Source: an uncultured Nitrososphaerota archaeon (lineage in GTDB: Archaea > Thermoproteota > EX4484-205 > JAAOZO01). Taken from it: DNA of 64,000 nucleotides. Location: positions 64,001-128,000 of the forward strand of contig CAYOYV010000003.1 of assembly GCA_964408285.1 (NCBI GenBank), given 5' to 3'. Both the position numbers and the translations under genes were made by a program. The notes under the pieces were generated by a model, which had not been told where the DNA came from, ran no database searches, and saw only the letters and a program-made list of their open reading frames with translations. Positions 2,859-45,015 of the stretch are shown here, in pieces (position 1 is the stretch's first letter; the number at the start of each line of letters is the position of its first letter).

Positions 2859-4109
2859 TTGCCAGAAAGGACAATGGAAGACTTCAGACCCACAGAAATC
2901 GCCGAGCAGTATGGAACGCCTACGTATGTCATGAATCTGGACATTGTCAGGGACAACTTCAAAGGGCTGGAGAAATCAATAACAAAAGTCGCCCGGGAAT
3001 CAAAGCTGTTCTATGCAGTTAAGGCGAATCCGCTATTGTCCATTCTGACCGCGATAAGGAACATGGGCGGTGGGGCTGAGGTTGTGTCAAGAGGGGAGAT
3101 CGAAGCCGCAGTTCGGGCCGGTTTCAGGGGAGATGATATGATATTCAATGGTCCGGGGAAGACTCGTGGTGAAATAGAAAGGGCACTTGGACTGGGAGTA
3201 TATTCCATCAATGTTGAATCGTTGGAGGAGCTAGTGGAGACAGAGAAGATTGCTAAGGCCCTTTCTACTCGATGCAGGGTCGGATTCAGGATAAATCCAG
3301 GTCTCTTGGTGAGAACTCATAAGTACCTTGCAGTGGCTTCCAGAGGAAGCAAGTTCGGCCTAGACCCCAGAAATTACGTTAGGGCCCTCGAAGCAGCATC
3401 CCGGAGTGATTACCTCAGGCCGGTCGGCATACATATGCACATTGGTTCGCAAATATCCCTTATTTCAGAATTCAAAAGGGCCTTTGGAATTGCGATGCAC
3501 TTCGTCAGGGTCTTTGAGGATATGATTGGCGAGGCCCCGGATTTCATTGACCTAGGCGGAGGCATTGCCTTGAACTACAAGACCGGCAGGCCATCAATTG
3601 CGTGGGATAGGATATCAAGCGAAGCCATATCCGAACTCACTGAGTCCCACGCATGGCCAAGGGGAGCCAAACTCCTTATGGAACCAGGAAGGGCAATAGT
3701 CGGAAACGCCGGAATACTCCTGACGAGGGTTCTCTACGTTAAGGAATCGACAAGAACGAACTGGGCGATCACGGATGCTGGTATGAACTGCCTCATGAGA
3801 ACGGCCCTCTATGGAACCAAACATAGGATAGCTAGTCTAGCTGGGAAACGCGGAAAGCGGACAGCATACATGATCGGAGGTCCGATTTGTGAGTCCGGAG
3901 ACACTTTTGGGAGGTATTTCTTGCCAGCTCTAGCAAGGGGAGATCTCCTTGCAATCCTTGACGCAGGAGCCTATGGCTCGTCTATGTCAAGCAACTACAA
4001 TGGCCAACCTAGACCTGCAACTGTGGTCGTTGATTCTGGTTCTTTTCGAATGGCAGAAAGGAGAGAAGACTTGGAGGATCTCTTCATAAGGCAGATCGGG
4101 CCTCAATGA
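2859..4109 (+). CDS. lysA: Diaminopimelate decarboxylase
   Basis: YAVKAN PLP lysine, SKFG, HMHIGSQ, DLGGG, EPGRAIV, GPICESGD, GAYGSSMSSNYN. Confidence 0.9.
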   Translation: MPERTMEDFRPTEIAEQYGTPTYVMNLDIVRDNFKGLEKSITKVARESKLFYAVKANPLLSILTAIRNMGGGAEVVSRGEIEAAVRAGFRGDDMIFNGPGKTRGEIERALGLGVYSINVESLEELVETEKIAKALSTRCRVGFRINPGLLVRTHKYLAVASRGSKFGLDPRNYVRALEAASRSDYLRPVGIHMHIGSQISLISEFKRAFGIAMHFVRVFEDMIGEAPDFIDLGGGIALNYKTGRPSIAWDRISSEAISELTESHAWPRGAKLLMEPGRAIVGNAGILLTRVLYVKESTRTNWAITDAGMNCLMRTALYGTKHRIASLAGKRGKRTAYMIGGPICESGDTFGRYFLPALARGDLLAILDAGAYGSSMSSNYNGQPRPATVVVDSGSFRMAERREDLEDLFIRQIGPQ

Positions 4110-4113
4110 TGTC

Positions 4114-5226
4114 TTATGGTCTCAGAACAACAATCGGTTGCCCCAGCTTCTTCTTTTTTGGACTGAGATCTCCTAACCCTGGCGAATCTTGGACCCCTCT
4201 TTCGCCATGGTCAGTCCATGCAGCTCCGTGATCCAGCAAGTCCTCCTCCAACATCAGATCAGAGTCTAGATCAGCGAATCGCACGGCCTCAGAACCGAGG
4301 GCGAAATGGACTCCGGCGGCTATGCTTATTCCACTTTCATTATAGCAACCCACCATGCAACCAATTCCCTCTGCCTCACAAACAGCTGCGATTTTCAGCG
4401 CTCCGTATGTGCCAGCACTCTTCATGAGCTTGATGTTGATGAACTCGCAAGCATCAGCCCTGATTGCCGCCATGGCGTTCCTTTCATCTACAATGTCCTC
4501 ATCCAGCATAATCGGCACGTGTGTTCTTTTCCTGAGAAGAGCCAAGTCCTGAAGATGGCCTCTCGGGATTGGCTGCTCCACGAATTGGACGTTAGTGTAT
4601 TTCTCAAGAAGTCTCATCATCTCGAGGGCCTGACTTACATCGTATCCTTGGTTACAGTCCACTCTCATCTTCACGGTGTCTCCGATTGCCTCGTGAACTA
4701 GGTCGATCCTTTCGGCGTCACGGTTCAGATCCTCTCCGATCTTCACTTTTATTGCAGTGAACCCCTCTGCCACTTTCTCACTCGCCTCTTTTGCCATCTG
4801 GATCGGATGATCGATGCCTATTGTGTAGCTCGTCTCAATCCTTTCCTTGTTGCCTCCCAGAAACCTGTAGACTGGGACCTTTAGCTGCTTGCATAGGATA
4901 TCGTGAAGCGCTTGATCGATTGAGGCTTTTGCTGACCTTCCCCTCTCGACAGTCGGGACCGTTCTTGTGAGCAATTGACCATACTCTGAAACGTCTTTTC
5001 CAATCAGCCTCCTTAGCAGTGGCTCAAAAAGCTCCTCGATGCTTTCGGATGTTTCCCCAAGTACTCTGAGGGAAGGGCTTGCCTCTCCCCAGCCTACATT
5101 GCCCTCAGAATCAGTGAGCTTGACTATGAAATTCGTTGTGCTTTTTCTACTGTCCAGGGCTGTCCTGAACTCCTTTCTAGATGCTACACATACCTTGAAA
5201 ACTTCGGCCAACGATATTCTCGGCAT
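4114..5226 (-). CDS. Dipeptide epimerase (L-Ala-D/L-Glu epimerase/YkfB-like), enolase superfamily
   Basis: GWGEA, KVKIG, DCNQGY, VEQP, LDED, NIKLMK and C-terminal DLD motif. Confidence 0.85.
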   Translation of the reverse strand: MPRISLAEVFKVCVASRKEFRTALDSRKSTTNFIVKLTDSEGNVGWGEASPSLRVLGETSESIEELFEPLLRRLIGKDVSEYGQLLTRTVPTVERGRSAKASIDQALHDILCKQLKVPVYRFLGGNKERIETSYTIGIDHPIQMAKEASEKVAEGFTAIKVKIGEDLNRDAERIDLVHEAIGDTVKMRVDCNQGYDVSQALEMMRLLEKYTNVQFVEQPIPRGHLQDLALLRKRTHVPIMLDEDIVDERNAMAAIRADACEFINIKLMKSAGTYGALKIAAVCEAEGIGCMVGCYNESGISIAAGVHFALGSEAVRFADLDSDLMLEEDLLDHGAAWTDHGERGVQDSPGLGDLSPKKKKLGQPIVVLRP

Positions 5227-5298
5227 TGACTAGATCCATCGAATGCCCAATAAAAACAATTTCTGAATGGGCCGATGTGAATTCCGTTCGACCATCTA

Positions 5299-6612
5299 CT
5301 AGGTGGCGATTCTCTGCCCCATAACAGGAATTCGGACGTCCGCACCGAGATCGCTCACATATTTGGCAAAGGCCGCTGGATGTTCGCCATGCATTGGCAC
5401 GACGACTCTGGGTCTGACTTCCTTCACAAGTCTCCTTAGATCAATTGGCATCGCATGGCCGGATACATGTATGCCATAGACTCCCATTCCGAGCGCATCA
5501 AGCCAGTTTGTCAACCTTTCATAATCAAGTTCCATTTCCTCATTGAATGGCTCAGAGGATGAGAAGACAAAGATGCTTCCCGCTTTGGGCCCTATTCTCA
5601 TCACTCCCTGCAGCTCGCTTGTAGGGACTACAAGCAAGTTGTCTCTTTGGTGTGATGATATCTCTGATAGGGCCACTGTTCCCCACTTGCGACAAACTCT
5701 TTCCTCCCACTGCTGTACCTTGACCCTTTCTCTTTCCAATACACACACCCCGTCGCGAGGACCAGGAAGTCTGAGAGTCGAGTCAGATGAGATTCTGTCA
5801 AGAAGATAGGCCCTCCTCGCAGAGATCACAAGCTTTCTGTTGGCCTGCCTTGCAGCTCTGTAAAATGATCTATATCTATCAACATCTGCGAGCGCGAAAT
5901 CCCCAACAATCAGGGATGGGCACTCTGCAACGACCGAGGACAATTTCCTTTGAACTTCGCTCTCAGATGATACTTCTCCATCGGCGATATTCGTGTGTTC
6001 CACCAAGAGCATATCCGGCCTGTCTTTCTTCATTGCGTCTATGAAATCCAGGGTCATGTCAGATCTAGGTCCATGAATTCTGAAGTCGCCTGAGTACGCG
6101 ATTATGGATGACGGCGTCCTTATGATGAAACCGTAAGCGCCAGGGATTGAGTGATCGACATGTATTGGACTTATCTCTATGGAGTCAAACACGACGGAAT
6201 CTCCGGTGTGGAATTTCTTGATCGCTTTGCCTCCAATGTAGAATTCCATTTCCTTTCGTGAGATGTCTTTGTAAGCTTCAAGTATCAACTGAGAAGCCTC
6301 GCCCGCATAAATAGGTATGTCGTCTCTGAGCAGCCCGATATGCCCTGCGTGGTCTCTGTGGGCGTGTGATAGGAGAACAGCGCTGAATGGCTTTGGTCCT
6401 TCTTTCGAATAGGCGCCCGGAATATCAGGCAATATCCCCAGTTCCAGCATAACCCTCAGATCTCGTGGCTTTAGGAAAGGATCCGTGAAGAATTTGCCCC
6501 TCTGCCTGTATGACAGCCCGAAGTCGATCATTATTGACGATTCTTCGTCTCTCAACAGAAACTTGTTCCCGCCGACCTCATCAATGCCACCGTAGGCCAC
6601 TATCGAAGCCAA
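5299..6612 (-). CDS. RNase J-like metallo-beta-lactamase/beta-CASP hydrolase
   Basis: GGIDEVGGN, SHAHRDH, VDHSIPGA, YSGDFR, HVSGHA, PMHGEH. Confidence 0.8.
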   Translation of the reverse strand: MASIVAYGGIDEVGGNKFLLRDEESSIMIDFGLSYRQRGKFFTDPFLKPRDLRVMLELGILPDIPGAYSKEGPKPFSAVLLSHAHRDHAGHIGLLRDDIPIYAGEASQLILEAYKDISRKEMEFYIGGKAIKKFHTGDSVVFDSIEISPIHVDHSIPGAYGFIIRTPSSIIAYSGDFRIHGPRSDMTLDFIDAMKKDRPDMLLVEHTNIADGEVSSESEVQRKLSSVVAECPSLIVGDFALADVDRYRSFYRAARQANRKLVISARRAYLLDRISSDSTLRLPGPRDGVCVLERERVKVQQWEERVCRKWGTVALSEISSHQRDNLLVVPTSELQGVMRIGPKAGSIFVFSSSEPFNEEMELDYERLTNWLDALGMGVYGIHVSGHAMPIDLRRLVKEVRPRVVVPMHGEHPAAFAKYVSDLGADVRIPVMGQRIAT

Positions 6613-6704
6613 TCTGCCATTGTCTTCGCACCTCTGCTAATATCGATTTCCTCTCCCCTCTCGCGGAAACGCTTTTCTAGTCAAGCCAAATCCAGCTATA
6701 TGTC

Positions 6705-7451
6705 ATGGCGAGTTTCACATTTATGGAGAAGAAAAGGGTTCAAGATGGAAGCCTTGTGTTGGATGGACTGCCCGATACGGGCCTTGTTGGGACTATAGCT
6801 GCCCTCCACCTTGTCAGGGCTAAGGGCATGTCCCCCATGGTGAGGATAGATTCCGATCTATTGCCTCCTGTCGCAATCGTGAAGGAAATGAATCTTTTCG
6901 AACCACTCATGATATACAGCTCTGATGGCGTTTCAGTAATAGCCTCTGAGATCCCGATTCCCACGGAAATCACGAAACCTTTTGCGAGAGAATTGGTGGT
7001 CTGGATCAAGGATCATCGCTGCAGGGCCGTAATTTCGATTGGTGGAATCCCAGAACCCGCCAGATCGGAGATTGAGGAACCAGAGGTGTTCTATCTGACG
7101 AACTCGACTGAGGCATTCTCAGCCACGATAGATCTGGGAAAGACCAAGCAATTGGATTCGGCATTCCTAGTTGGTCCAAAGGCTGCCTTCTTGCTGGAGT
7201 GTTTCAGGGAGGAGATACCAACGATTGGCCTATTCGCTCAATCGTTTCCGAATTACCCAGATCCGGGTGCAGCAGCATCTGCACTCACCCTGCTAAGGCG
7301 CTCAAACGTTTTCCAAGTCGATCTTGAGGAACTGGTGAAATCCGGCGAAGAGATGCGCGTGAGGTTCAGGGATCTCATGAGGAGAACAATGGGAGAGATG
7401 GAGAGAGCTCAGAAATCGAGGGAAATGGAGTCTCCCTCGCTTCTGGTGTGA
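6705..7451 (+). CDS. Proteasome assembly chaperone PAC2 family protein
   Basis: GLPDTGLVGTIAA, ISIGGI, PNYPDPGAAA, VDLEEL motifs. Confidence 0.85.
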   Translation: MASFTFMEKKRVQDGSLVLDGLPDTGLVGTIAALHLVRAKGMSPMVRIDSDLLPPVAIVKEMNLFEPLMIYSSDGVSVIASEIPIPTEITKPFARELVVWIKDHRCRAVISIGGIPEPARSEIEEPEVFYLTNSTEAFSATIDLGKTKQLDSAFLVGPKAAFLLECFREEIPTIGLFAQSFPNYPDPGAAASALTLLRRSNVFQVDLEELVKSGEEMRVRFRDLMRRTMGEMERAQKSREMESPSLLV

Positions 7452-7462
7452 GGTGATCCAGA

Positions 7463-7882
7463 ATGTCCCTTGGCTTTTCAGACGAATTCGACGAGAGATT
7501 CAGGAGGCTAATCTTGGAGGCTAGGAGAACAGAAGAGAGGATGGCAAGGGCTCTGAAGGAATTCGAGCGCTCAGAGAGATGCGTAGTCCCCCTACATGAG
7601 CTGAGGCCAACAACCGATGGATACACATTGACAGTGGATTTGCCCGGTGTGCAGAAGGATGAGGTAGGCCTAACGTTGGAGGGCACCTCATTGTTCATGA
7701 CAGCTCCCTGCAAATCCATTACAGAGAAGAGGAGAAGACATGCAAAAGAACTGAACTACATAATCGAGATATCTCTCCCCGGTGATGTCGACACCAAGAC
7801 CATCAAGGCCACAATGCGGAATGGTTTACTGAGACTAGAAATGAAAAAACGCATAGGGGGTTACAAGATAAGGATAGATTAG
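7463..7882 (+). CDS. Small heat shock protein (Hsp20/alpha-crystallin)
   Basis: TVDLPGVQKDEV, LPGDVDTKTIKATMRNGLLRL, terminal IRID (IXI) motif. Confidence 0.85.
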   Translation: MSLGFSDEFDERFRRLILEARRTEERMARALKEFERSERCVVPLHELRPTTDGYTLTVDLPGVQKDEVGLTLEGTSLFMTAPCKSITEKRRRHAKELNYIIEISLPGDVDTKTIKATMRNGLLRLEMKKRIGGYKIRID

Positions 7883-7890
7883 AATACCAC

Positions 7891-9183
7891 ATGACAGGCC
7901 AGTCAAAGCTCCTCCCCGGTCTGGGTCCAGTCAGGAAGCTGAGTGGTGAGCCTTCAATATGCTTACTGTGTAGAGGTTCGAAGCTCCTTTGCGGGAAGCC
8001 AGCTTGCCCAGCACTGATGAGGGCTAACAGCATCGCAAGGCTCAATCTCACACGTTCCTCCCTGGAAGTTGAGGGTTCCTCTCCCCCTAGCGTTTTCGTT
8101 GGAAGAATGGGTTATCCTAGGGTGAGCATTGGACCAATGGTCCCACCATTGTCCGGAGACACGTCGCACATGAATGATCCTTCTCTCTGGTATAGGATGC
8201 AGATATCCGAATTCGTGCAAATGATCACCTCTCTTTTCAGAGGAACCTTTCCAGCGACCGTGAACAAACCGGAAGAGGGAGGAAGGTTGCTCCAAGAGCT
8301 CCAGGAATTGGCGCTCTCATCGAGATCTCCTGATACAGATGTGATCTTCTCAAGACCCCTGAGTGCTGGGATATCACTCAGCTCCGACGTTCAACCTTTT
8401 GGACCCTCTGCTCCATTAAGCAAGATGCAGGTCTCAGGGACAAGGTCGAATCTGAAGCTTGAAAGGGCGTTCTATGATGAGGATCTCAAGGCAGCAGACG
8501 CCATGTGGAATATATATCGGAGTGGAGAACCCGTGCAATCGATCCAGAGGGTACTAAGCCTAGCTATGCTTGGAGTTGCGAATAATAGGAGGCTCGTCCC
8601 GACAAGATGGAGCATAACGGCAGTCGATGATACTTTGGGAAAAAGGCTAAGAGATAGAGTGATAAGATATGAGCAGTTAGGGGAATTCCGCCTGCATTAC
8701 TCGAGAAGCATGGGGAATCTTTACGCAGTGTTGCTGGTGCCAGGCTTCTGGAGCTATGAGTTGATGGAGATATTTCACAGTGGTTCGGTATGGAATCCCT
8801 CGGGAGGCGAAGTCGCCATAGCAGGAGACTGTGAGGGGACCAAAGAACGTTCCTCGTACGCTTCAATAGGTGGCTGCTATTATTCTGCAAGGCTGGCAGT
8901 CCTAGAGCATCTTGATGCCATACGGAAGTGCGCTACTGTCATAGTGATAAGGGAAGCATTGCCGAGCTATCTGCTGCCTGTTGGTGTTTGGACTGTGAGA
9001 GAAGGGATAAGAGACGCAATGAGATCCAAACCTCAGACGTTTTCGGACATGAAATCATCCCTGTCTGCCCTTTCAGAGCTGACGAAGGCAAGTATGGCAA
9101 TTATTATCGAGGAATCCAGTCTGTTGAGAAGGATGATATATCAGAGTAGACTGACACGATTCCTCATGGGAGACTCCTCCTGA
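7891..9183 (+). CDS. nreA: Nre family DNA repair protein
   Basis: CLLCRGSKLLCGKPACP Zn finger, GSSPPSVFVGRMGYP, RRLVPTRWSITAVDD, C-terminal PIP-like QSRLTRFL. Confidence 0.9.
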   Translation: MTGQSKLLPGLGPVRKLSGEPSICLLCRGSKLLCGKPACPALMRANSIARLNLTRSSLEVEGSSPPSVFVGRMGYPRVSIGPMVPPLSGDTSHMNDPSLWYRMQISEFVQMITSLFRGTFPATVNKPEEGGRLLQELQELALSSRSPDTDVIFSRPLSAGISLSSDVQPFGPSAPLSKMQVSGTRSNLKLERAFYDEDLKAADAMWNIYRSGEPVQSIQRVLSLAMLGVANNRRLVPTRWSITAVDDTLGKRLRDRVIRYEQLGEFRLHYSRSMGNLYAVLLVPGFWSYELMEIFHSGSVWNPSGGEVAIAGDCEGTKERSSYASIGGCYYSARLAVLEHLDAIRKCATVIVIREALPSYLLPVGVWTVREGIRDAMRSKPQTFSDMKSSLSALSELTKASMAIIIEESSLLRRMIYQSRLTRFLMGDSS

Positions 9184-9320
9184 AGCGCGTCTTGGGAATG
9201 GGGTTCAGGGACAGATGGAAGGGGATCAGTCCGCATCCTTCACCGAGCCGAGCTCATACGTAGAATCACTTCATGGTGAATCATTATAAAGCATCAAACG
9301 CAACTCTTCGAGGGGAATCA

Positions 9321-10145
9321 ATGGAAGAGGAACCAGTGTCTTTCACGAATGAGGGAGAGAAGCTGTCTGGGATGTTCCATTTGCCAGAAAAAACGCCTGC
9401 CCCTTCTATAGTATATTGCCCTGGTTTCACCGGGCACAAGATCGAGGCCCACAGGCTATTTGTCCATGCGGCGAGATACATGGCTAGAGCAGGTTTCCTA
9501 GTTCTTCGCTTTGATTTCAGGGGATCTGGAGAAAGCGAGGGGATGTTCGAATCAATGACCGTTTCTGGCGAAATAAGCGATCTCAAAAAAGCTATAACCC
9601 TCACACTTGGCAGAAAAGAAGCCCAGGGTAAGAAGGTAGGAGTGCTCGGACTGAGTCTCGGCGCAGCGGTTTCTATTCTGACAGCGGCCGACGATGATAG
9701 AATAGGAGCCGTCTGCTCGTGGTCTGGTCCGGCGAGTTTCAATGCATCCTTCCAAGCCGCCGAATCAATCATGGGCAGGCCGATCAACATGGCCAATCTG
9801 AGTCAAATGGACTACATCGATATGCCTAGCGGATACAGGCTCGGCAGAGCATTCCTGTTGGATATCATGAAGCATGATGTCTCGGGTAGTTGTGCCAGAA
9901 TCTCTCCTAGACCTATTCTCATAGTACATGGAACACTAGATCAGCTTGTGCCTGTTCAGGATGCGGAAAGGCTGTTCCTATCAGCTAGAGAACCGAAGGA
10001 GAAAATACTCATACATGAAGCAGATCATACGTACAATCGGATTGATTGGCAATCGGAGGTGATTGAACGCACTACCGAGTGGTTTAACCGAACGTTGACC
10101 TCGGGCAAAGGGAGCTTGATTGGCAAGAACGATTCCACGACCTGA
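9321..10145 (+). CDS. Alpha/beta-fold serine hydrolase
   Basis: RFDFRGSGESEG, GLSLG nucleophile, HGTLD, ADH triad; start set at ATG 9321 downstream of TTATAAA. Confidence 0.85.
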   Translation: MEEEPVSFTNEGEKLSGMFHLPEKTPAPSIVYCPGFTGHKIEAHRLFVHAARYMARAGFLVLRFDFRGSGESEGMFESMTVSGEISDLKKAITLTLGRKEAQGKKVGVLGLSLGAAVSILTAADDDRIGAVCSWSGPASFNASFQAAESIMGRPINMANLSQMDYIDMPSGYRLGRAFLLDIMKHDVSGSCARISPRPILIVHGTLDQLVPVQDAERLFLSAREPKEKILIHEADHTYNRIDWQSEVIERTTEWFNRTLTSGKGSLIGKNDSTT

Positions 10146-10165
10146 GTTCCTTTGCCAGTATTCAA

Positions 10166-12595: not shown

Positions 12596-12722
12596 TGTCG
12601 TCTTTCCTCGCTGAAGTGGAATTTAGTCTTTTCCAACGTGCGCTACTCTGTCATCAAACCTTGCCCACATGGCAATCGCTCATGGGATCGGAAGACAAGT
12701 GCCTCTAGGCTAAGGATGGAAC

Positions 12723-13493: not shown

Positions 13494-13517
13494 TGTACCT
13501 CGTGGAAACTATATGCT

Positions 13518-13523
13518 TTTAAA
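13518..13523. promoter_or_regulatory. Palindromic TATA box shared by divergent surE and rhomboid genes
   Basis: TTTAAA with 24 nt to each ATG (13493 on -, 13548 on +). Confidence 0.6.
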
Positions 13524-13547
13524 TGGTTTCTTCCGGATATCGACTGA

Positions 13548-14258: not shown

Positions 14259-14365
14259 GCGGCTTCAACGCCAGTTTGAAAGGAATCTGGATTCTCCGTG
14301 ATTGCGAATTCGGATCTCGGTATGAGTGCGATTCGAGGCCGTATAATGATCTCTCTGGATGAACT

Positions 14366-15927: not shown

Positions 15928-16067
15928 TGTGGAGTTCTCCGCAGCGGGAGGTTTTAAGCGAGAGATGCCTCCGATCGAAGCCGACCTCGTCAGCTGGGGA
16001 AAAAGGATTGGCCGGATGGCTTGGGAGCTTCCGCGCATGCAACTCCATCAGATAGCGATGGAAGCAT

Positions 16068-16730: not shown

Positions 16731-16761
16731 GCCATTAATATAGCTTCCGACTTTACGCGCA

Positions 16762-17730
16762 GTGGACTCAATGGTTCAATCACAGCGCAGGGCCCTTGGC
16801 TTGGTCTATGGAAAAGAACTGCTATCATACGATTTCGGCCCTAATCACTATATGAACGCAAAGAGGCTGATATCTTTTTTCGAGGCAGTTCAGTCATCAA
16901 GTCTATTGACCGATAGAAGAATATCCGTTCTGAATCCGAGGAAGGCAACACGAGAGGAATTAGCGCTCTATCACGATGAAACTTACATAGGATTCGTCAA
17001 GAAGGCATCGGAAAGAGGAACGGGCCTGCTGGACTATGGAGACACTCCTGTGTTTCCAGGGATTTTCGAAGCAGCATCATATGTGGTTGGGTCCTCTCTC
17101 GCGGCATTGGATGCCGTGATGAAGGGAGAAGTGACCTACTCCATGAATCCAATGGGAGGAATGCATCATGCAAGGAAGAATCGAGCAGCTGGCTTCTGCG
17201 TCTTCAATGATGTAGGGGTCATAATCGAAAAGTCAAGAAGGGAATATGGCCTTGCCAGGATCCTGTATGTGGATCTGGATGCCCATCACGGGGACGGCGT
17301 GATGTATGACTATTATGACGATCCTAACCTGTACATCGCGGACTTCCATGAGGATGGGAGATACCTATATCCTGGAACAGGATTCACCGATGAGACAGGG
17401 GGTTCCAATGCTGCCGGGACAAAATTGAACTTGCCCCTAAGGCCGGGCGCCAGAGATGCCGAATTCCTCGACAAGTTCCAAACGATGAAGGAGTTCGTAT
17501 CTGCACTCTCCGTCGATCTGACAATAGTGCAGGCTGGCGTCGACTCCATCGCCGGAGACCTTTCTCACCTAGATTTGACCATGAATTCGCATCTTGCTGT
17601 CATCTCTTTCCTAAAGAAGCGCGCCGCATCGAGTTCGAAAGGTCCCTTGATCGTTCTGGGGGGAGGCGGTTATAATCCCAGAAATACTTCGGCAGTCTGG
17701 CTCTCAATAGTCAAGAATCTCATCGGATGA
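16762..17730 (+). CDS. Zn-dependent deacetylase, HDAC/AcuC family
   Basis: GGMHHA, GFCVFND, DLDAHHGDG, QAGVDS, GGGGY. Confidence 0.9.
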   Translation: MDSMVQSQRRALGLVYGKELLSYDFGPNHYMNAKRLISFFEAVQSSSLLTDRRISVLNPRKATREELALYHDETYIGFVKKASERGTGLLDYGDTPVFPGIFEAASYVVGSSLAALDAVMKGEVTYSMNPMGGMHHARKNRAAGFCVFNDVGVIIEKSRREYGLARILYVDLDAHHGDGVMYDYYDDPNLYIADFHEDGRYLYPGTGFTDETGGSNAAGTKLNLPLRPGARDAEFLDKFQTMKEFVSALSVDLTIVQAGVDSIAGDLSHLDLTMNSHLAVISFLKKRAASSSKGPLIVLGGGGYNPRNTSAVWLSIVKNLIG

Positions 17731-17785
17731 TCATTGGCAGACACCCTTTTGCCGAATAAAAGAAGGATTTTTTATACTTCTGAAG

Positions 17786-20521
17786 ATGGATTTCCTATGT
17801 ATGAGGATAAGGGGTATCTATCTACATTGCCTCGTTATAGTGGCAATCGGGCTATCTGCCTTAGAACCGGGAACAAGTGCCTCGGAATCGGCCCCAGAGC
17901 GATTTGAGGGAACTGGCCCCGTTCTCTCAAGCAGAATCGTGGCGAAGACCTCTTCGGAGACATTCACGATGAAAGGAATCATTCAAGGAGTTCCAGGTTA
18001 TTCAGCTGGGAATTTGGAATCCGCGGCTTCTGCTGGTTCCGTTGCTGTAGGAATCTTCCAATCTCCCAAATGGTCAGATGTATATTGGGCCATGAGAAAC
18101 TATGGGAGTTCGACGAGCGGGGAATTCGTCCTATTCCAGAATGATGTATTCCAGGTCCGCTATGGCAATTACAATACATGGAAGTATGTTGCATTGAATT
18201 CGAGCTATCCAAGTTTGAGGCAGAATTTCACTGTTCCTTCTTCCTCAGTCGGATTCACTACCAACTATACATGGCTAGTGGTCAGAGTCAACTCGGGAAC
18301 CGCGAGATTCCATCTCGAGATCTGGAATTACGGGCTGATAAGTTTCGGAATAACGTCTCAATCAGTTGAGGTTTCAGGACCGTATGACCCCTGGTGGGTC
18401 TCTCTAAGGATGCCCAGCACTAGGAATCTCACAAATGAAACATACAGGATAGAGGCAGTCTGGGAATCGGGTTCAGGACTTGAAGTCCTGTTGATAGACA
18501 ACTTCAGAGACGCCGATGACAGGGCTTCAGGGAATGCGCAATTGCTCAATTCAACATCATCGATTTACCTGAACATGTCGGGACTCATGATGGAGAGCGT
18601 GCTGACACAACCAGAATTGGATTCGTATTCGACCTTCTTTAGTGCTTGGCAGGGCTCTCTACGCCTTCGCAACTTGATCATCTACCTTAAGGGAAGAAAT
18701 CTGCCCCAAAGCAACGTAACTGCTTCCGTCAATTCCACGCAGTTCGGCAAGGGCCTTGTTCCGGCAATATACCTCCCGTTTCCTTTTGACCAGATTGGGT
18801 TCACATCAACTGTAAGGGGATCCGCGTCTTTTTCAGGAGGAACCATATCGTTTTCATCGGATCTAAACAAGCTCAACCAGAGCCGAGTCAAGTACGATAG
18901 AGATCACATCCCTCCTTTTCCAAGACCTTTCGCCTATCTGTCAATCAAGACGGATTCCGTCGAAAAACCGTGGGCATACTGGGAGATCTCTGCTGTGGAT
19001 TGGTCTGTGCGAGTGCAGGATGCATACGGAGCTCTGCACCCTCTACCTGCCACAGAAGTAAGACAACTGGAGTCGGGATTGAAGGTCAGCTATCCTATCT
19101 ATGTCTTCCCCAATGCATTCCCGTCCTATGGCTTCCTCAACTTCACGATGGCTCTCAACTACACGATAGAGGCTTCGTCGAACGGGCCTCAATTCTTCAC
19201 TAACTATACAGTGTTTCCGGAAAGCCTTGCTCGCTGGATGATTTCGAATCCTGCAGTAGCTTTCACAGCAGCACGTGGATCAAATGTGACGATCAAGATA
19301 GACTCCATACCGAACGAATGGGACATACGAAGCGCGAGCGTTACAGCAGGTCCCGGAGGAGGAATCCCGGTTGTTTTGATCCAGACAGGCAGTATCCTAA
19401 TTCGCAACATTCTGATGGGGAATATGACATCATACTCTGGCTCAGTTATTCTCAACATGGATGCACCCAATTTCCTTGATACGCTGACTTCCTATGTGCA
19501 ATACAGATGGAAGAATTCGACAACCTCTTTCTTCTTGAGGGGGGACGCAATGAGAATTGATGCAAGGGCCTCTTCTACCCTGCCCGACTATCCCCCAGGA
19601 AAGATCTCACTGGAAGTTAAAGGGCCTTCTGGTTCTATATTTAGCCAAGTTTTCGGCCAAGAAAACGAGAACGGTGTTGCCACTGGCGACATTCAGCTGA
19701 GCCTAGCTGGGACGCACATCGTGATCGCTACATACAGATCTCTCGATGGATTCAGAGTTGGTATATTCAGGGGAGAATGCGGCGTACTACAAGTCAGAAG
19801 TGCTATCGAGAAGGACAGGGTTCTCTTGAGTTCCGCAAGAGTGTCAATAGAACTTGAACCCTCAGACATGGGACTAGTGGGTTCTGGCACGTTAGCGCTT
19901 GTCTCCCCCAATGGAACCATTTCAGGCTTATCAACTGATAGGATCAATAACAAACTGGTGAAGACGATTTCTTTCCTGCAGACGGATCCAAGTGTGATAG
20001 GTAATTGGAGTGTCATACCTTCGATTGTCTTCCCGAATGGTCTATCAAGGGATCTCTCCCCGCTTAGATTCCGAGTGCTCGATGATATCCCACCTAACAT
20101 CACGAATGTATTTCAATTGCCAAAGGAGACCACCTTTCTTGATCCTGTGAATGTGACGATCGTGGTCGACGATAAGGGAACGGGAGTGAATTCGGTCTGG
20201 ATTTCTTACTCGATCGGAGATAGCAGCACGAGAAATAACATCACCGCCGTGAGACTTCGCCAAGGAATCTATTCTGCAACCATTCCGCGGCAATCCCCCT
20301 TCACAAGGGTCTCGTATTGGGTCTGTGCCGATGATAAGGCGAAGAACTCTAGTGAGCTGGGGCCATACTCATACGAGGTTTTGATACCCATCTGGATGTG
20401 GGCCGTTGCAGCCGCGATACTCATTCTATTGGGAATAGGGATCCTAATCCAATACAGGCAAGAAGCACGAAAATCAGAGCCCGGTGCCCCTCCGGCGCCG
20501 ATTCAACCTCTTGGCACGTGA
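17786..20521 (+). CDS. Large secreted, C-terminally anchored surface protein
   Basis: Hydrophobic signal-like N-terminus, many N-x-S/T sequons, beta-rich, Ig-like domain (DDIPPNIT..) before a C-terminal TM helix. Confidence 0.7.
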   Translation: MDFLCMRIRGIYLHCLVIVAIGLSALEPGTSASESAPERFEGTGPVLSSRIVAKTSSETFTMKGIIQGVPGYSAGNLESAASAGSVAVGIFQSPKWSDVYWAMRNYGSSTSGEFVLFQNDVFQVRYGNYNTWKYVALNSSYPSLRQNFTVPSSSVGFTTNYTWLVVRVNSGTARFHLEIWNYGLISFGITSQSVEVSGPYDPWWVSLRMPSTRNLTNETYRIEAVWESGSGLEVLLIDNFRDADDRASGNAQLLNSTSSIYLNMSGLMMESVLTQPELDSYSTFFSAWQGSLRLRNLIIYLKGRNLPQSNVTASVNSTQFGKGLVPAIYLPFPFDQIGFTSTVRGSASFSGGTISFSSDLNKLNQSRVKYDRDHIPPFPRPFAYLSIKTDSVEKPWAYWEISAVDWSVRVQDAYGALHPLPATEVRQLESGLKVSYPIYVFPNAFPSYGFLNFTMALNYTIEASSNGPQFFTNYTVFPESLARWMISNPAVAFTAARGSNVTIKIDSIPNEWDIRSASVTAGPGGGIPVVLIQTGSILIRNILMGNMTSYSGSVILNMDAPNFLDTLTSYVQYRWKNSTTSFFLRGDAMRIDARASSTLPDYPPGKISLEVKGPSGSIFSQVFGQENENGVATGDIQLSLAGTHIVIATYRSLDGFRVGIFRGECGVLQVRSAIEKDRVLLSSARVSIELEPSDMGLVGSGTLALVSPNGTISGLSTDRINNKLVKTISFLQTDPSVIGNWSVIPSIVFPNGLSRDLSPLRFRVLDDIPPNITNVFQLPKETTFLDPVNVTIVVDDKGTGVNSVWISYSIGDSSTRNNITAVRLRQGIYSATIPRQSPFTRVSYWVCADDKAKNSSELGPYSYEVLIPIWMWAVAAAILILLGIGILIQYRQEARKSEPGAPPAPIQPLGT

Positions 20522-21771
20522 TCAGCGTTCGATTGGACTAGTTTGCTATATATCTCAAGTGTCTGGTTCGCCACCATTTCCCAAGTGAAATATTTCTCTG
20601 CTCTTCTCCTGCCATTTATGCCCCACCTCTTCGCATCTCCTGGATTTCCAAGCATGGCTTTGATTCCCCATCCAATGTCCGTAGGCTCGTTTCCGTTGAC
20701 ATGTATCCCGCACTGGTCCGGACCCGAAGGTACTACTTGTTCCCTAAAGCCAACGACGCCGTTTGCGCCCACGACAACTGGCTTCTCCATGGCCATGGCC
20801 TCGAGACAAACGATTCCGAAGGGTTCATATGTGCTTGGGAACACAGCCGCATCGCACGCTGCGTAATGGAGTATCCTCTCGTCCTCAGGAATGAACTCAT
20901 ACCTCACCTTTATGTTCTTCTTAATCCCGAGTCTCTCTGCCAGTTCTATTATGTAGTCCTGCTGTTCGCCTTTTCCCAAGATGACAAGCTTTGTCTTCGG
21001 ATGCTCTGCTAGGACGTCAGGCATTGCCTGGATCAGATTCGCAATGCCCTTAATCCAAGTCAGTCTACCTATGAAAAGCAGCATATTCTCATCATCCGCT
21101 ATCTCATAGAACTTCCTGATCTCCTTGACTTTTTCGACTGGGGCCTTCGCAGGATCATACGTATCGATATCAATCCCATTCCACACGACAGAGATCTTGT
21201 CGCTTGGCCAACCGTGTTTCTCCAAGTCATCCTTCATTGCATAGCTGACCGTGATGATCCTATCTACTGAGCGAGATGCCTCAAGTTCCAAGTGACTGAT
21301 GATTCTAGAGCCTTCTCCTGACCTCCCCCATTCTGTGGAGTGGACATGGAAGATGCTGGGTATCCTCGGCAATTCGTTCTTAATGCTTATACCTGAAAGT
21401 GCGCTGAGCCAATCATGGAATGCTACTATACTGTGTTCCAGCTTCAGCTTCTTCTCCAATTGGTTCACGAACTTAGCAGTCGAGAGAACATTGTAGACCA
21501 ACACGTCATTGAAGAACCTGATCTGAGGCCCCCATTTTATGATATCATCGGTCACAAACAGGGGGAAGACATTCGATATGTTGACAAGCTTGGGTCGATG
21601 TACTTCTACGCCTTGCGTTACTTCTCTTGTGGGTAGATTGCCGGGATTCAGGCTTAGGACCGTAACATCATGTCCCTTCTTCACGAATTCCCGGGTTATG
21701 TATCCAGCATATGTACCCAGACCACCAACGAGCATGGGTGGATATTCCCAGACAAGAAAGGCAAGTCTCAT
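20503..21771 (-). CDS. GT4 glycosyltransferase (glycogen synthase-like)
   Basis: WEYPP..VGGLG, FHDW, GRL..IKG, PSTYEPFGIVCLEAMA. Confidence 0.85.
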   Translation of the reverse strand: MRLAFLVWEYPPMLVGGLGTYAGYITREFVKKGHDVTVLSLNPGNLPTREVTQGVEVHRPKLVNISNVFPLFVTDDIIKWGPQIRFFNDVLVYNVLSTAKFVNQLEKKLKLEHSIVAFHDWLSALSGISIKNELPRIPSIFHVHSTEWGRSGEGSRIISHLELEASRSVDRIITVSYAMKDDLEKHGWPSDKISVVWNGIDIDTYDPAKAPVEKVKEIRKFYEIADDENMLLFIGRLTWIKGIANLIQAMPDVLAEHPKTKLVILGKGEQQDYIIELAERLGIKKNIKVRYEFIPEDERILHYAACDAAVFPSTYEPFGIVCLEAMAMEKPVVVGANGVVGFREQVVPSGPDQCGIHVNGNEPTDIGWGIKAMLGNPGDAKRWGINGRRRAEKYFTWEMVANQTLEIYSKLVQSNADHVPRG

Positions 21772-21852
21772 CTTACATCGTATTGTTTGTCCTACGATTA
21801 TATAAGGTTCGTGATGAGCATGGTTAAAAATCAGCCTTGACGCACGTAGAGC

Positions 21853-22227
21853 ATGAAGGAAGCAATCCTATCAGAAAAGGCACCGAGGCCCATCGGTCCA
21901 TATTCACAGGCAATAAAGATAGGGGGACTCGTGTTTCTTTCAGGGATAATTCCCCTTCGGCCGAGTTGCGAGGTATTGAAAGGCAACATGGCAGACCAAT
22001 TCCGCTTGATCATTGAGAACGCCAAGGCGATTTTGGAATCGGCCGGGACTTCTATGGATGACGTGATCAAGGTCACGGTCTACATGAAGGATCTGAAGGA
22101 CTTCGATGCAATGAACGAGGTTTATGCTTCAGTCTTTCGGCCTCCTTTTCCAGCCAGAAGTACCGTCCAGGTTGCAGCGTTGCCAAGAAACGTGGACATT
22201 GAAGTTGACTTGATTGCAGCTGTTTAG
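21853..22227 (+). CDS. ridA: RidA/YjgF enamine/imine deaminase
   Basis: APRPIGPYSQA, FDAMNEVY, PARSTVQVAALP, IEVDLIA. Confidence 0.9.
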   Translation: MKEAILSEKAPRPIGPYSQAIKIGGLVFLSGIIPLRPSCEVLKGNMADQFRLIIENAKAILESAGTSMDDVIKVTVYMKDLKDFDAMNEVYASVFRPPFPARSTVQVAALPRNVDIEVDLIAAV

Positions 22228-22234
22228 TGGCGGT

Positions 22235-22924
22235 TCAAGCTCTGTGTTTCAACAGAAAAAGCAACAATGCGAATGGCTCCTTTATCGGATCTAGTTTGCT
22301 CCTCCCCCGTTTCCTGTCCTCGAATCTAATGGGGACCTCTTTGACCGATAGTCCTTCTTTCAACACAAGCCATGTTGCCTCGACTTGGAAGGAACGTCCG
22401 TCTGAGCTCGTTCTTTCAGAGAGTAGTCTTGCCACTCTCTCGTTGTAACTTCTGAAGCCGGATGTGGAATCGCTGACATCAATGCCCAGAAACGAGCGGG
22501 CCAGTGAATTCGCAGTGAGAGAGATCAGCCAACGGAATCTCGACCTTTCTCCTGTCGTAGCTCCCGTGATGTACCTAGAACCTATGATCATGTCTGCCTC
22601 CGTTCCCAGCAACTTAGGAGCATCCCTTGGATCATGACTGAGATCGGCGTCCATCTGAACATATCTCTGAATGTCAGGAATCTCAAGGGCTTTCCTAAGA
22701 CCTTCACGTATTGCAGATCCAATTCCCATCGGCTTGCTTCTTTGTATCAGAACCAGATCGCCGCAAGTCCCGGCAAGGGTCTTGATTGATTCTATTGTTC
22801 CGTCTTGTGAGCCGTCATCAACTATGACTATTTTGGAGATATCTTGGTTGCTCCTCAGCTGGCCAATCAGATCAATTAGATTGTCTGCCTCATTTAGGGT
22901 CGGGATGATGACAGCAGCCCTCAA
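22235..22924 (-). CDS. GT2 polyprenol-phosphate mannose synthase-like glycosyltransferase
   Basis: IIPTLNE, VDDGSQDGT, QMDADLSHDP, IGSRY, DSTSGFR. Confidence 0.85.
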   Translation of the reverse strand: MRAAVIIPTLNEADNLIDLIGQLRSNQDISKIVIVDDGSQDGTIESIKTLAGTCGDLVLIQRSKPMGIGSAIREGLRKALEIPDIQRYVQMDADLSHDPRDAPKLLGTEADMIIGSRYITGATTGERSRFRWLISLTANSLARSFLGIDVSDSTSGFRSYNERVARLLSERTSSDGRSFQVEATWLVLKEGLSVKEVPIRFEDRKRGRSKLDPIKEPFALLLFLLKHRA

Positions 22925-22955
22925 GGTCTTTCTCCTTTATCGATGAGAAGAACGT

Positions 22956-24176
22956 TCAGGAGATTTCAAATGTGAACCCCTGCGCACTCAGGCAATCGGT
23001 CAGCTGCTGAAAGCTCTCTCCTATCTGAATTTCCATAGTTATCTGCACAGTAGCCATTGACGGAGGCACATTGGGCTCATCTCTGATATGAGCCAGATCA
23101 ACGACGTTGGCCCTTGCGGATGCTATGCATCCGAGGACTGTTCTAAGACTGCCCGGCCTATCTGGTATAGTGACTGTCAGTCTTGTCAGCCTCCCGGTCT
23201 TTCTGAGACCCTGCGTGATGACCCTAGCGAGAAGAAGAGGATTCGCGTTGCCTCCGCTGACTATTGCACCGACTCTCTTTCCTGACAAGTCCATCTTTCC
23301 TGAAATTGCGCCAGCCAAGGAAGCAGCACCCGCTGGTTCAGCAACCATTTTTGACCTTTCCAGAAGCATGAACATCGCTTTTCCGATCTCATCATCCGTG
23401 ACGGTTATCATGTCGTCTATGACCTCCATGGCGATGTTGAACGTCAATTCCCCGGGCTTCTTGACGGATATGCCATCGGCTATGGTCGCTCCCCTCTTGA
23501 CTTCCGTCAATTGTCTGCGCCTGAACGATTCATAGAATGCTGGATACTCGGAAGATTGAACACCCACTATCTTCGTGGCGGGACTCAGCTTTTTCATAAC
23601 GCTCCCCAGACCGGAAATCAAGCCGCCTCCGCCAACAGGAACGAGGAGGAAATCGAGCTTTGGCGCCTGCTCATGAAGCTCGAGCCCCATCGTTCCCTGA
23701 CCAGCAGCAACGTCCAGATCATCAAATGCATGAATGAACCTTGCTTTCCTTTCAATCGCATATTCTCTTGCCGATTCGTAGGAATCGTCGTAGGTATCGC
23801 CCTTAAGATGTATGACCGCCCCATATGATCTCGTAGCTTCTATCTTGTTTGGTGATGCGTATTCCGGCATGAACACATGAGTCTCTAATCCTAATGAAGA
23901 TCCAGCATAGGCTACCCCTTGACCATGATTTCCAGCTGAAGAAGTGACAACGATTCTCTCTCCTCGGCCTTTTGCCTTCCAACAGGCGTTCAGCGCGCCC
24001 CTTATCTTGAATGCCCCGGTCTTCTGCATATTCTCAAGCTTCATGAAAACCTCAGCTCCCGTGGCCTTGCTGAACGCGGCGCTCCTGACTAAGTCTGTCT
24101 TACGGACATACGCAACGATGTTTTCCATAGCCTTCTTCGATTCCTCATAGACTTCGTCGACCCGAGAGCCTCTCAT
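22956..24176 (-). CDS. ilvA: Threonine ammonia-lyase with C-terminal ACT domain
   Basis: KLENMQKTGAFKIRG, SSAGNH, PVGGGGL, EPAGA, SGGN, ACT DRPG. Confidence 0.9.
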   Translation of the reverse strand: MRGSRVDEVYEESKKAMENIVAYVRKTDLVRSAAFSKATGAEVFMKLENMQKTGAFKIRGALNACWKAKGRGERIVVTSSAGNHGQGVAYAGSSLGLETHVFMPEYASPNKIEATRSYGAVIHLKGDTYDDSYESAREYAIERKARFIHAFDDLDVAAGQGTMGLELHEQAPKLDFLLVPVGGGGLISGLGSVMKKLSPATKIVGVQSSEYPAFYESFRRRQLTEVKRGATIADGISVKKPGELTFNIAMEVIDDMITVTDDEIGKAMFMLLERSKMVAEPAGAASLAGAISGKMDLSGKRVGAIVSGGNANPLLLARVITQGLRKTGRLTRLTVTIPDRPGSLRTVLGCIASARANVVDLAHIRDEPNVPPSMATVQITMEIQIGESFQQLTDCLSAQGFTFEIS

Positions 24177-24184
24177 ACTAGGTA

Positions 24185-24198
24185 TGAGTTCGAACTCA
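24185..24198. promoter_or_regulatory. 14-bp perfect palindrome (putative operator) between the TATA-like box and the ilvA start
   Basis: TGAGTTCGAACTCA, 8 nt upstream of the ilvA ATG. Confidence 0.4.
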
Positions 24199-24386
24199 AG
24201 GATTTATGATTTGGCTTGGCGTGCGCGCGTGACAGAGCCAAGATAAATATCTCAATGGGGAACCCATGCGCCCATTTCCAATACTTGTCCGATCCTATGG
24301 CTGTTGAGAGACTCTCTCAGCCTCTTGGACAGTCCCCTCGGGATTTCTCTGAAACTCTAAATCCACCGTAATTGCAGGAGGAACGC

Positions 24387-25181
24387 TCATTTGACCTCAG
24401 CGCAGATCCTTTTTGCCCCAACCAAGAGCGGCTTCAGCGAGTCAAGGCTCTGTACCAGTACCTTGCCCTCCGTTCCCGAGGCGTGCACAATCTGCTTGCT
24501 TTCGATGAAAAGTGCAACATGGCCAACCCTTCTCTCAGAAGGTTGTTTGAAGAACAGCAGATCTCCAGGAAGAATCCGCGCGAAGTCAACCAGAAAGCCA
24601 GCTGTGTCATACTGCATGTGCGCATCCCTCTTCAGGCGATATCCATTCATTCCGAACACAAGCTGGGAGAACCCAGAGCAGTCCAATCCCCAAGGCGTGG
24701 TTCCGCCCCACAGATAGGGAACCCCTTGAAGGCTCAATGCTGTTTCAATCACATCCTGACAACCCTTTCTGGGAAATGGATCTGCTGCTTGCCTTGTTAT
24801 CCCGAAGGTCGTGTAGCCAATTCCACCATCAGGTAGAGCCAAAACCTTCTTGCCCTTCTTTTCCCCCGCTAGTGAGAGGCGGCTCCCCATCGGAGCTACT
24901 AAGAAAGGCTGGAATCTGGCTAAGCTCGAAGATATCGGTGTGAACGGATCGTCGAATACAACCACTTCGCCTTGCTGACCATAAGAACGAGATCCACTTC
25001 GCATTATGCCTTTCCTTCTTATCCAACCGACATAACCATCCTCGCATTCAACAAGAGAGAATACACCATGCTTCTTGGTCTCTTTCAGATTCTCCCCGAG
25101 TCTGGCCTGTGTCACCCTTTCCGCATCATGTCTCGGATTCGTAAGAACATCAATGAAGGAGTCAAGAACTACCAGATTCAT
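24387..25181 (-). CDS. SH3-NlpC/P60 peptidase, gamma-D-glutamyl-diamino acid endopeptidase (YkfC/DPP VI-like)
   Basis: N-terminal SH3b-like (TQARLGE..DGYVGW), YLWGG, DCSG, RDA, GDLLFF, HVAL, VHASG; no signal peptide; start set at ATG 25181 downstream of TAAATA. Confidence 0.85.
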   Translation of the reverse strand: MNLVVLDSFIDVLTNPRHDAERVTQARLGENLKETKKHGVFSLVECEDGYVGWIRRKGIMRSGSRSYGQQGEVVVFDDPFTPISSSLARFQPFLVAPMGSRLSLAGEKKGKKVLALPDGGIGYTTFGITRQAADPFPRKGCQDVIETALSLQGVPYLWGGTTPWGLDCSGFSQLVFGMNGYRLKRDAHMQYDTAGFLVDFARILPGDLLFFKQPSERRVGHVALFIESKQIVHASGTEGKVLVQSLDSLKPLLVGAKRICAEVK

Positions 25182-29650: not shown

Positions 29651-29770
29651 GATGCGTGCCTTACATCGGAAATCCATTTAAGGATTGAATGCCACCATGA
29701 CTCCATTGTCTATGTAGCCATGAAGTGATATACTTCATGGAACGCGCGTGTTCCTTCGACCCTATTGGGC

Positions 29771-45009: not shown

Positions 45010-45015
45010 ATCGGC

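Follow-up and report, generated by a model that had tools for sequence, protein, structure and literature searches.

A 64,000-nucleotide window (the whole stretch of DNA analysed here, positions 64,001 to 128,000 of contig CAYOYV010000003.1) from an uncultured Nitrososphaerota archaeon encodes three enzymes that, judged from their families, probably form the cytoplasmic, peptide-handling half of a dispersed murein catabolic route of bacterial type, in a host that makes neither murein nor diaminopimelate (DAP). These are LysA, a diaminopimelate decarboxylase of 416 amino acids (aa) with a TTG start (2859..4109, + strand; PF02784 and PF00278, TIGR01048); a dipeptide epimerase of the enolase superfamily, YkfB/YcjG-like and 370 aa long (4114..5226, - strand; MR_MLE_N and MR_MLE_C); and a gamma-D-Glu-diamino-acid endopeptidase resembling YkfC and dipeptidyl-peptidase VI (DPP VI), 264 aa long when read from an ATG (24387..25181, - strand; SH3_16 and NLPC_P60). 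A first-pass annotation had proposed that the archaeon uses them to salvage stem peptides of bacterial walls; its gene positions match the listing of open reading frames (ORFs), and its names agree with the Pfam and NCBIfam matches. Comparative genomics supports that proposal: neither the search for a DAP pathway nor the survey of co-occurrence in relatives contradicted it, and two gene clusters found elsewhere, L077 and L200, lend it further support. The comparisons cover the archaeon's own genome (G000; 1.82 Mb, 93.7% complete, 46 contigs), 41 related genomes, 401 genomes of the phylum, and the family f1, which comprises six genomes (this one and five relatives), with 14 control genomes for the profile searches.

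The peptidase belongs, by its predicted fold and its specificity residues, to the YkfC/DPP VI subfamily. Xu et al. (2010) defined YkfC enzymes by a Cys-His-His triad, by Asp256 and by Tyr118 of the first SH3b domain (PMC2954226); in BcYkfC the triad is Cys238-His291-His303, and the role of Asp256 is to neutralise the substrate's free L-Ala amine at the N-terminus (PMC2954226). The closest sequence matches of the archaeal protein in the PDB are the YkfC and DPP VI entries 3NPF, 3PVQ and 3H41, and its Cys186/His239/His251 align with the BcYkfC triad, being invariant in the five archaeal sequences; across a 30-sequence alignment the Cys and the first His are invariant and the second His is present in at least 90%. 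Arg203-Asp204-Ala205 aligns with BcYkfC Arg255-Asp256-Ser257, Asp204 again being invariant in the five archaeal sequences, and the replacement of Ser257 by Ala has been reported for DPP VI too (PMC2954226). Tyr68, in the motif DGYVGW, aligns with chain residue 96, which is BcYkfC Tyr118 of strand beta-D in SH3b1, and is invariant in both the five-sequence archaeal and the 30-sequence alignments. An AlphaFold2 model built on the 30 sequences (pLDDT 95.2, pTM 0.92) has the architecture SH3b1-SH3b2-NlpC/P60, which in this subfamily puts the active site at the SH3b1 interface, and the model's top six Foldseek matches are 3NPF, 4R0K/3PVQ and 3H41, with TM scores of 0.87-0.89 over about 281 columns and all three domains, other NlpC/P60 entries of the PDB reaching at most 0.69. 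On the S' side, BcYkfC His290 and Arg306, for which binding of carboxylate groups of the substrate has been proposed (PMC2954226), are not conserved, being Gly238 and Gly254 in the archaeal peptidase; since the Bacteroides structures lack His290 in the printed alignment, this residue may not define the subfamily.

The longest ORF of the peptidase gene (24387-25235, - strand) has a TTG start and encodes 282 aa, the ATG at 25181 being Met19 of that frame. Four archaeal orthologues begin aligning near this ATG, and the 264-aa form is modelled as ordered from its second residue onwards. Inspection of the translation reveals no hydrophobic signal-like stretch at either possible N-terminus, in keeping with the earlier claim that the enzyme lacks a signal peptide, and its location is judged on this basis to be cytoplasmic. 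Enzymes of YkfC type act only on substrates whose N-terminal L-Ala is free and do not cleave intact murein, its precursors or peptides attached to N-acetylmuramic acid (MurNAc) (PMC2954226); because of this restriction, free stem peptide inside the cell is the likely substrate.

The epimerase is by sequence a member of the dipeptide epimerase family, for which a specificity for L-Ala-D-Glu is plausible. Its best PDB match is the L-Ala-D/L-Glu epimerase YkfB of B. subtilis (1JPM/1TKK, 1.2e-64), and the KxK motif, the second catalytic Lys and the three metal ligands all align with 1JPM, in the segments IKVKIG, NIKLMK, RVDCNQG, FVEQP and IMLDED. In YkfB numbering we take these residues to be K160/K162, K268 and the metal ligands D191, E219 and D244; the motifs are conserved across 17 aligned epimerases. 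The Asp-x-Asp motif after the eighth strand, which presumably binds the dipeptide ammonium, is also present, the archaeal ADLDS aligning with FDFDA of YkfB and all 17 rows having DLD or DVD.

LysA scores 393.4 bits against TIGR01048, where the equivalog cut-off is 297.9, and seven orthologues (G001, G003, G012, G002, L077 and both G027 copies) pass the same model with 378-469 bits. In the PDB its best matches, with 2P3E (8.9e-75) at the head, are without exception DAP decarboxylases, whereas DokD, FslC and BtrK, which belong to the same superfamily and act on other substrates, match more weakly; the DokD model gives 176-225 bits on LysA and its orthologues against a cut-off of 700. The enzyme is an orphan, in that no other gene of the DAP pathway was found in the genome. 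Neither dapB nor dapF was detected there (controls positive in 11/14 and 9/14, respectively), nor was any DapL above its cut-off, for which all 14 controls give a match and only 1/14 exceeds the cut-off. The sole gene of the dihydrodipicolinate synthase (DHDPS) family reaches 160 bits against a dapA cut-off of 206 and has LarA-like, aldolase and dihydropyrimidine-dehydrogenase-like genes as neighbours. Likewise, dapF and above-cut-off dapB were found in none of the six family f1 genomes nor in G012, and among the 41 related genomes G027 is their sole holder, with dapF, lysA and dapB side by side; the detection of this operon serves as a positive control and indicates that the searches work.

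Lysine would instead be made de novo by the LysW/alpha-aminoadipate (AAA) pathway, a conclusion supported by a row of genes on contig C5 encoding LysM, a LysW-like ORF, LysX, homocitrate-synthase-like, homoaconitase large and small subunit and homoisocitrate-dehydrogenase-like proteins and LysY/Z/J/K, some of which score under their equivalog cut-offs. The LysW-like ORF is 61 aa long and has two CxxC pairs and a C-terminal EDWGE, which we take to be the LysW hallmark, and a second LysX-type gene adjoins argG/argH. The five relatives in the family show the same combination of missing dap genes and a LysW/AAA lysine cluster. The first-pass annotation had held that LysA serves salvage and not de novo synthesis, and no de novo DAP pathway has emerged to contradict it; LysA appears in this light to be an entry point for scavenged meso-diaminopimelate (mDAP). 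In genus g2, lysA adjoins an AsnC-type, LysM-like regulator gene, lysX and the AAA homocitrate synthase gene (L131:7917-12503 in G001; L133 in G003), an arrangement that hints at common regulation by lysine; the g2 gene represents a second lysA type, with about 35% identity to the one in the window and with the LysA of L200 as its nearest. The earlier statement that archaea do not make murein is borne out for family f1 by the absence of Mur ligase domains (0/6 genomes; controls positive in 12/14), from which it follows that the enzymes do not recycle a wall of the cell's own.

The distribution of the three genes among relatives is consistent with a joint function. The YkfC-like gene is present in 5/41 related genomes and in 5/401 of the phylum, all within family f1, and each of its five holders also has lysA and the epimerase gene; ykfC is never found without lysA in the 401 genomes. 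The co-occurrence that the first-pass annotation made a touchstone of its proposal is therefore seen in this genome and four of its five family relatives, the fifth, G003 (86% complete), having lysA and the epimerase gene. lysA itself occurs in 10/41 related genomes, namely the six of f1, G012, G008, G011 and G027, being split into two pieces in G008 and reduced in G011 to a 46-residue remnant with stops. In genus g2 an M20 peptidase, of the type needed to split L-Ala-L-Glu, directly follows the epimerase; the best match to it in the archaeon's own genome is only 29% identical, and no M20 gene was seen beside the other epimerase loci within flanks of 1.5 kb. One relative carries a [NiFe] hydrogenase cluster beside ykfC (L128).

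Linkage outside the family was surveyed in the 80 top-ranking matches of the archaeal peptidase among genomes, whose record titles are all those of bacteria, and in 80 metagenome loci. An epimerase homologue lies within 6 kb of ykfC in 29/80 bacterial genome loci, and an Opp permease within 7 kb of it in 17/80 metagenome loci. On the Acetothermia contig L077 a single strand carries epimerase, SBP5 solute-binding protein (SBP), OppB, OppC, lysA and ykfC in that order, and the metagenome contig L200 has the order S13 DD-carboxypeptidase-SBP5-OppBCDF, ykfC, beta-lactamase-like-epimerase-LdcA (S66)-M20-lysA. The two contigs are unrelated, so that epimerase, Opp importer, lysA and ykfC have been joined in two independent clusters, whose enzymes are 31-41% identical to the archaeal three. 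Going by family matches, the L200 genes would cover import of stem peptides and their stepwise breakdown, with LysA acting last. The class-A beta-lactamase-family protein (L200:5521-6342, - strand) and the S13 DD-carboxypeptidase (L200:13157-14185, - strand) of that contig have penicillin-binding-type folds and are apparently peptide trimmers. The Acetothermia genome that contains L077 has a single lysA, and LysA there may consequently serve biosynthesis and salvage both; a lysA copy dedicated to salvage was considered for Acetothermia and is not demonstrable from a genome that holds only one.

Two quick trees, of few or long-branched rows and usable only as leads, place the archaeal genes near those of L077. 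In an 11-row LysA tree the archaeal protein, together with those of g3 and G012, is sister to L077 LysA (SH-aLRT 96) and not to the LysA of the archaeal dapF-lysA-dapB operon, and in a YkfC tree the archaeal sequences fall into a group with L077 and one sequence from Armatimonadota, separate from 76 rows of FCB type.

Outside the window, the genome holds further genes for the breakdown of murein. An Amidase_2 protein, of the MurNAc-L-Ala amidase family, scores 106.6 bits, all archaeal controls being negative, and its gene is divergently paired with that of a glycosidase of family GHL10 (G000:C5:87163-89445; L146:9163-11445). The two proteins share one topology, with hydrophobic termini at both ends that resemble a signal at the N-terminus and a membrane anchor at the C-terminus. 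The pairing recurs in G012 and G011, and in G005 both domains lie in one 531-aa open frame cut by the contig end. Intact Amidase_2 is present in 5/41 genomes, all of them lysA holders, and G011, of genus g6, retains stop-ridden remnants of the amidase gene and of lysA (G011:C7:1-2708 and G011:C17:72964-73101; loci L151 and L023), so that amidase and lysA seem to have decayed together there. GHL10 has 15 matches in the archaeon's genome, and the sole solved relative found is Cwp19 of C. difficile (E 2.7e-4). GHL10 is presumably also the family of DigH. DigH degrades denuded glycans (DigH paper, in which the Pfam family is not named).

For the sugar moiety the genome has a MurQ (G000:C1:267025-267894; TIGR00274, 373.6 bits against an equivalog cut-off of 302), and a BcrAD_BadFG (BadF/BcrA-type) ATPase kinase ORF ends 18 nucleotides (nt) upstream of murQ on the same strand. 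The MurNAc kinase MurK is, as we assume, a member of this BadF/BcrA family. A GH84 glucosaminidase lies near murQ, and a DppA-type M55 D-aminopeptidase reaches 255 bits. M55 D-aminopeptidases number seven matches each in G007 and G009 (family f3), an unusual expansion for archaea. MurQ (17/41 related genomes), M55 (21/41) and GHL10 (17/41) are spread through the order, and the stem-peptide branch is the addition of family f1 to these order-wide murein genes. Searches by tblastn with the SBP and permeases of L077 recover four ABC (ATP-binding cassette) transporter loci of Opp/Dpp type. The OppB/C/D/F proteins of L200 are 48-55% identical to those of the locus on contig C24, whose SBP, at only 27%, lies beside a DUF4838/GH67N-like protein. 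The assignment of any one of the four loci as the stem-peptide importer was considered and dropped, given low SBP identities and glycosidase neighbours. The accessory functions that the first-pass annotation had linked to its proposal are accordingly represented by the four importer loci and Amidase_2, with MurQ and DppA in addition, while the LD-carboxypeptidase among them was not found.

Taken together, these genes suggest the following route. Outside the cell, the membrane-anchored amidase would strip stem peptides from bacterial wall debris while its GHL10 neighbour cuts the glycan, a surface attack proposed from the protein families, from the hydrophobic ends of both proteins and from the conservation of the gene pair. 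Those stem peptides whose N-terminal L-Ala is free would then enter through one of the four Opp/Dpp-type importers, and the YkfC-like cysteine peptidase would cut the gamma-D-Glu-mDAP bond, releasing L-Ala-D-Glu together with mDAP or, where the substrate is a tetrapeptide, with mDAP-D-Ala. The epimerase would turn L-Ala-D-Glu into L-Ala-L-Glu, to be split by a dipeptidase, and LysA would decarboxylate the D-centre of mDAP, for which the genome appears to encode no other source, yielding L-lysine. In parallel, the BadF/BcrA-type kinase with MurQ and the GH84 glucosaminidase would use the MurNAc and N-acetylglucosamine (GlcNAc) part.

The three genes are unlikely to come from a mis-binned bacterial contig, because archaeal genes surround them on the same contig (a family-B DNA polymerase gene, polB, 28 nt upstream of lysA; Nre, PAC2, Topo VI A/B and DUF4443) and because their G+C content (0.50-0.51) is like that of the window (0.496). 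The sequencing runs listed are 11 DNA entries from 10 studies, of sediment and freshwater-sediment metagenomes, two of them possibly the source, with no RNA entry.

Several observations weigh against the salvage route. The genes are dispersed in the genome and form no operon, as the first-pass annotation had recognised: the peptidase gene lies about 20 kb from the other two, and none of the four Opp loci shares their contig. lysA and the epimerase gene are separated by the 4 nt first reported (lysA TGA at 4107-4109, spacer 4110-4113, epimerase stop TTA at 4114-4116 on the other strand), and being convergent they are not co-transcribed. The pair recurs in genus g3 with polB upstream, and since conserved synteny extends to polB, the adjacency does not count as independent evidence. 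Linkage of lysA to ykfC is rare elsewhere (1/80 bacterial genome loci and 2/80 metagenome loci, one of the two being the same sequence as L077). The epimerase occurs in 23/41 related genomes, mostly without ykfC or lysA, so that a general role on dipeptides containing D-amino acids may apply, and it falls below the cut-offs both of its best NCBIfam model, that of the L-Ala-D/L-Glu epimerase (NF041118, 247.8 bits against 500), and of NF011708 (89.3 against 343); these models are narrow, however, as the epimerase of the L077 operon fails too (241.7 bits). Arg24 in the 20s loop of YkfB presumably binds the Glu side-chain carboxylate, and the archaeal epimerase has no Arg in this column but Asp25, others having Arg (G002 and G004) or Gly (g2, g6 and L077); Arg27, two residues on, aligns with an Arg of Bacteroidota epimerases that neighbour ykfC. 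No LD-carboxypeptidase of the YkfA/LdcA type (Peptidase_S66) was found in the genome (0 matches; controls positive in 7/14), which would leave the mDAP-D-Ala from a tetrapeptide without an assigned peptidase. The SBPs of the four Opp/Dpp-type loci are only 24-30% identical to those of L077 and L200, and at least two of the four loci adjoin glycosidases and may carry sugars. In G012 both lysA and the amidase are present while ykfC is missing, and in G001 and G003 lysA is not accompanied by the amidase. Finally, the relatives are not independent, family f1 being in effect one origin, and at 93.7% completeness the absences from the genome are not proven.

A rival view holds that the three genes are functionally unrelated and linked only by analogy with Bacillus, the epimerase acting on D-dipeptides in general, the NlpC/P60 enzyme on another gamma-glutamyl or amide substrate and LysA on something other than mDAP. 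An epimerase that is widespread (23/41 genomes), mostly without the other two genes, scores below the equivalog cut-offs and differs from YkfB in the 20s loop would suit this view, as would the scattering of the genes among polB, a beta-CASP/metallo-beta-lactamase nuclease-like gene, threonine ammonia-lyase and GT2, and the existence of LysA paralogues with other substrates, seen here in the weaker matches to DokD, FslC and BtrK. We nevertheless think it unlikely, as LysA and its seven orthologues exceed the TIGR01048 cut-off and remain far under that of DokD (176-225 against 700 bits), the YkfC-specific Asp and Tyr that hold the free L-Ala amine have been retained, both L077 and L200 unite the three genes with an Opp importer, and ykfC never occurs without lysA in 401 genomes. 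That LysA belongs to a de novo lysine route of DAP type, whose other genes either lie in the 6% of the genome left unassembled or are non-orthologous replacements, is highly improbable. A genome 93.7% complete in 46 contigs with one DHDPS-family gene leaves some room for it, and the g2 lysA does sit among lysine genes (LysM-like regulator, lysX and homocitrate synthase). Against this stand the failure to find dapF or above-cut-off dapB in any of the six f1 genomes or in G012, although both were found beside lysA in G027, the low score of the DHDPS-family protein (160 against 206 bits) beside LarA-like and aldolase genes, and a complete AAA/LysW cluster that already supplies lysine.

The murein enzymes might also be mainly weapons, the surface amidase and GHL10 protein lysing live bacteria in predation or competition and the cytoplasmic enzymes mopping up the fragments. 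This we regard as quite unlikely, even though the signal-like N-termini and C-terminal anchors of both proteins and the expansion of GHL10 (15 matches) fit it, and predatory murein hydrolases have been proposed for DPANN archaea (PMC9723730) and for protists (PMC4967989). Intact murein and its precursors are beyond the reach of YkfC-type enzymes (PMC2954226), peptidase, epimerase and LysA have no export signal by inspection, and MurQ, the kinase and DppA point to nutrient use. Predation is in any case compatible with the salvage of wall peptides, the sole point of difference being whether living prey is attacked. A broader scenario, in which the family lives partly on bacterial walls, its complete murein catabolism was built by several bacterial transfers, lysA and ykfC arrived as one module from an Acetothermia-like donor, and LysA is now the catabolic gate for mDAP, is possible, and we put it forward tentatively.

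The chemistry of the proposed route is known from bacteria. In Bacillus, YkfABCD comprises the LD-carboxypeptidase YkfA, the L-Ala-D/L-Glu epimerase YkfB and a gamma-D-Glu-DAP endopeptidase, YkfC (PMC2954226). The archaeal set would share with it the peptidase subfamily (triad, Asp256, Tyr118 and three-domain fold), the epimerase family and the cytoplasmic location, as well as the general scheme in which an amidase frees the peptide, which is imported and processed by the enzymes in turn. Unlike Bacillus, the archaeon has no murein to recycle, no Mur ligases and no detected YkfA/LdcA; its genes are dispersed and not in an operon with a peptide ABC transporter, an arrangement seen only in L077 and L200; and LysA is its sole DAP-related enzyme, lysine being otherwise made via LysW/AAA. 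The route of E. coli runs through MppA-Opp or MpaA, YcjG and PepD, with LysA turning the released mDAP into lysine. This murein-peptide route is outlined in the introduction of PMC2954226. It would have in common with the archaeal one the chemical steps, the epimerase family and the conversion by LysA of mDAP from imported tripeptide into lysine; in the archaeon, however, the gamma-D-Glu-mDAP cutter would be an NlpC/P60 cysteine peptidase and not the metallo-amidase MpaA, and no re-use branch through Mpl is possible. The clusters L077 and L200 have the same three enzymes together with an Opp importer, to which L200 adds LdcA, M20 and S13; their genes, in contrast to the archaeal ones, are clustered (in L077 on one strand), and both contigs probably belong to bacteria whose own walls also require DAP.

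Aciduliprofundum reportedly carries a transferred GH25 lysozyme. DPANN archaea have GH23 lytic transglycosylases (PMC9723730). Both are cases of wall hydrolases of bacterial origin in archaeal genomes, as here, but they concern single extracellular lytic enzymes read as attack tools, whereas the genes described above would form an intracellular, substrate-specific route to L-amino acids. Hosts without murein have also taken up bacterial genes for digesting walls among the protists: the bacterivorous anaerobe Trepomonas gained murein-degrading genes laterally (PMC4967989), and APM ciliates carry murQ, NamZ, anmK and lysA (PMC13198582), a list that shares murQ and lysA with the archaeon. These protists are phagotrophic eukaryotes, for which the parts of the two reports covered here describe no stem-peptide step by YkfC and epimerase, while the present host is an osmotrophic archaeon. 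In an aquifer study, the highly expressed 'cell-wall hydrolases' of Bathyarchaeota are without an NlpC/P60 domain (PMC5264521). No archaeal route for stem-peptide salvage was found in the literature covered, which excludes subscription journals and supplements. What appears to be new, as far as gene content can tell, is the host and the purpose, feeding on wall peptides rather than recycling them.

Other genes of the window include that of an ATP-grasp protein of 406 aa (33147-34367, + strand) carrying the C-terminal domain of D-Ala-D-Ala ligases (PF07478, 79 bits), whose best NCBIfam match is D-alanine--D-alanine ligase (153.8 bits against a cut-off of 243), odd given that there are no Mur ligases. 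A BNR/sialidase-like protein of 362 aa adjoins a 1029-aa protein with a match to GH106 alpha-L-rhamnosidase (28589-32860, - strand), and these, with the GH38, GH84 and DUF4838 genes elsewhere in the genome, point to a glycan-degrading heterotroph. The hydrogenase maturation genes hypF, hypD and hypE stand in a row at 42763-47312 (+ strand). Long ORFs of 911, 418, 442, 319, 192, 451 and 322 aa in the segments 17786-20521 (+ strand), 37552-38808 (- strand), 41356-42684 (+ strand) and 56608-60801 have no Pfam match at E 1e-5.

In sediments, murein forms a large stock of organic carbon and nitrogen that turns over slowly, and mDAP, muramic acid and D-amino acids are markers of bacterial necromass. 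If the proposed route is real, the mDAP and D-Glu of that necromass would be a direct nutrient for archaea in anoxic sediments, and a defined archaeal path leading from the stem peptide to the amino acids L-Ala, L-Glu and L-Lys would identify a consumer of murein and supply enzymes for assays and genes for tracking. It would also provide an example of gene transfer from bacteria to archaea at the level of a pathway, in which a pathway for recycling turns into one for feeding, and LysA would have shifted from the last step of a biosynthesis to the entry point of salvage beside an intact AAA/LysW pathway.

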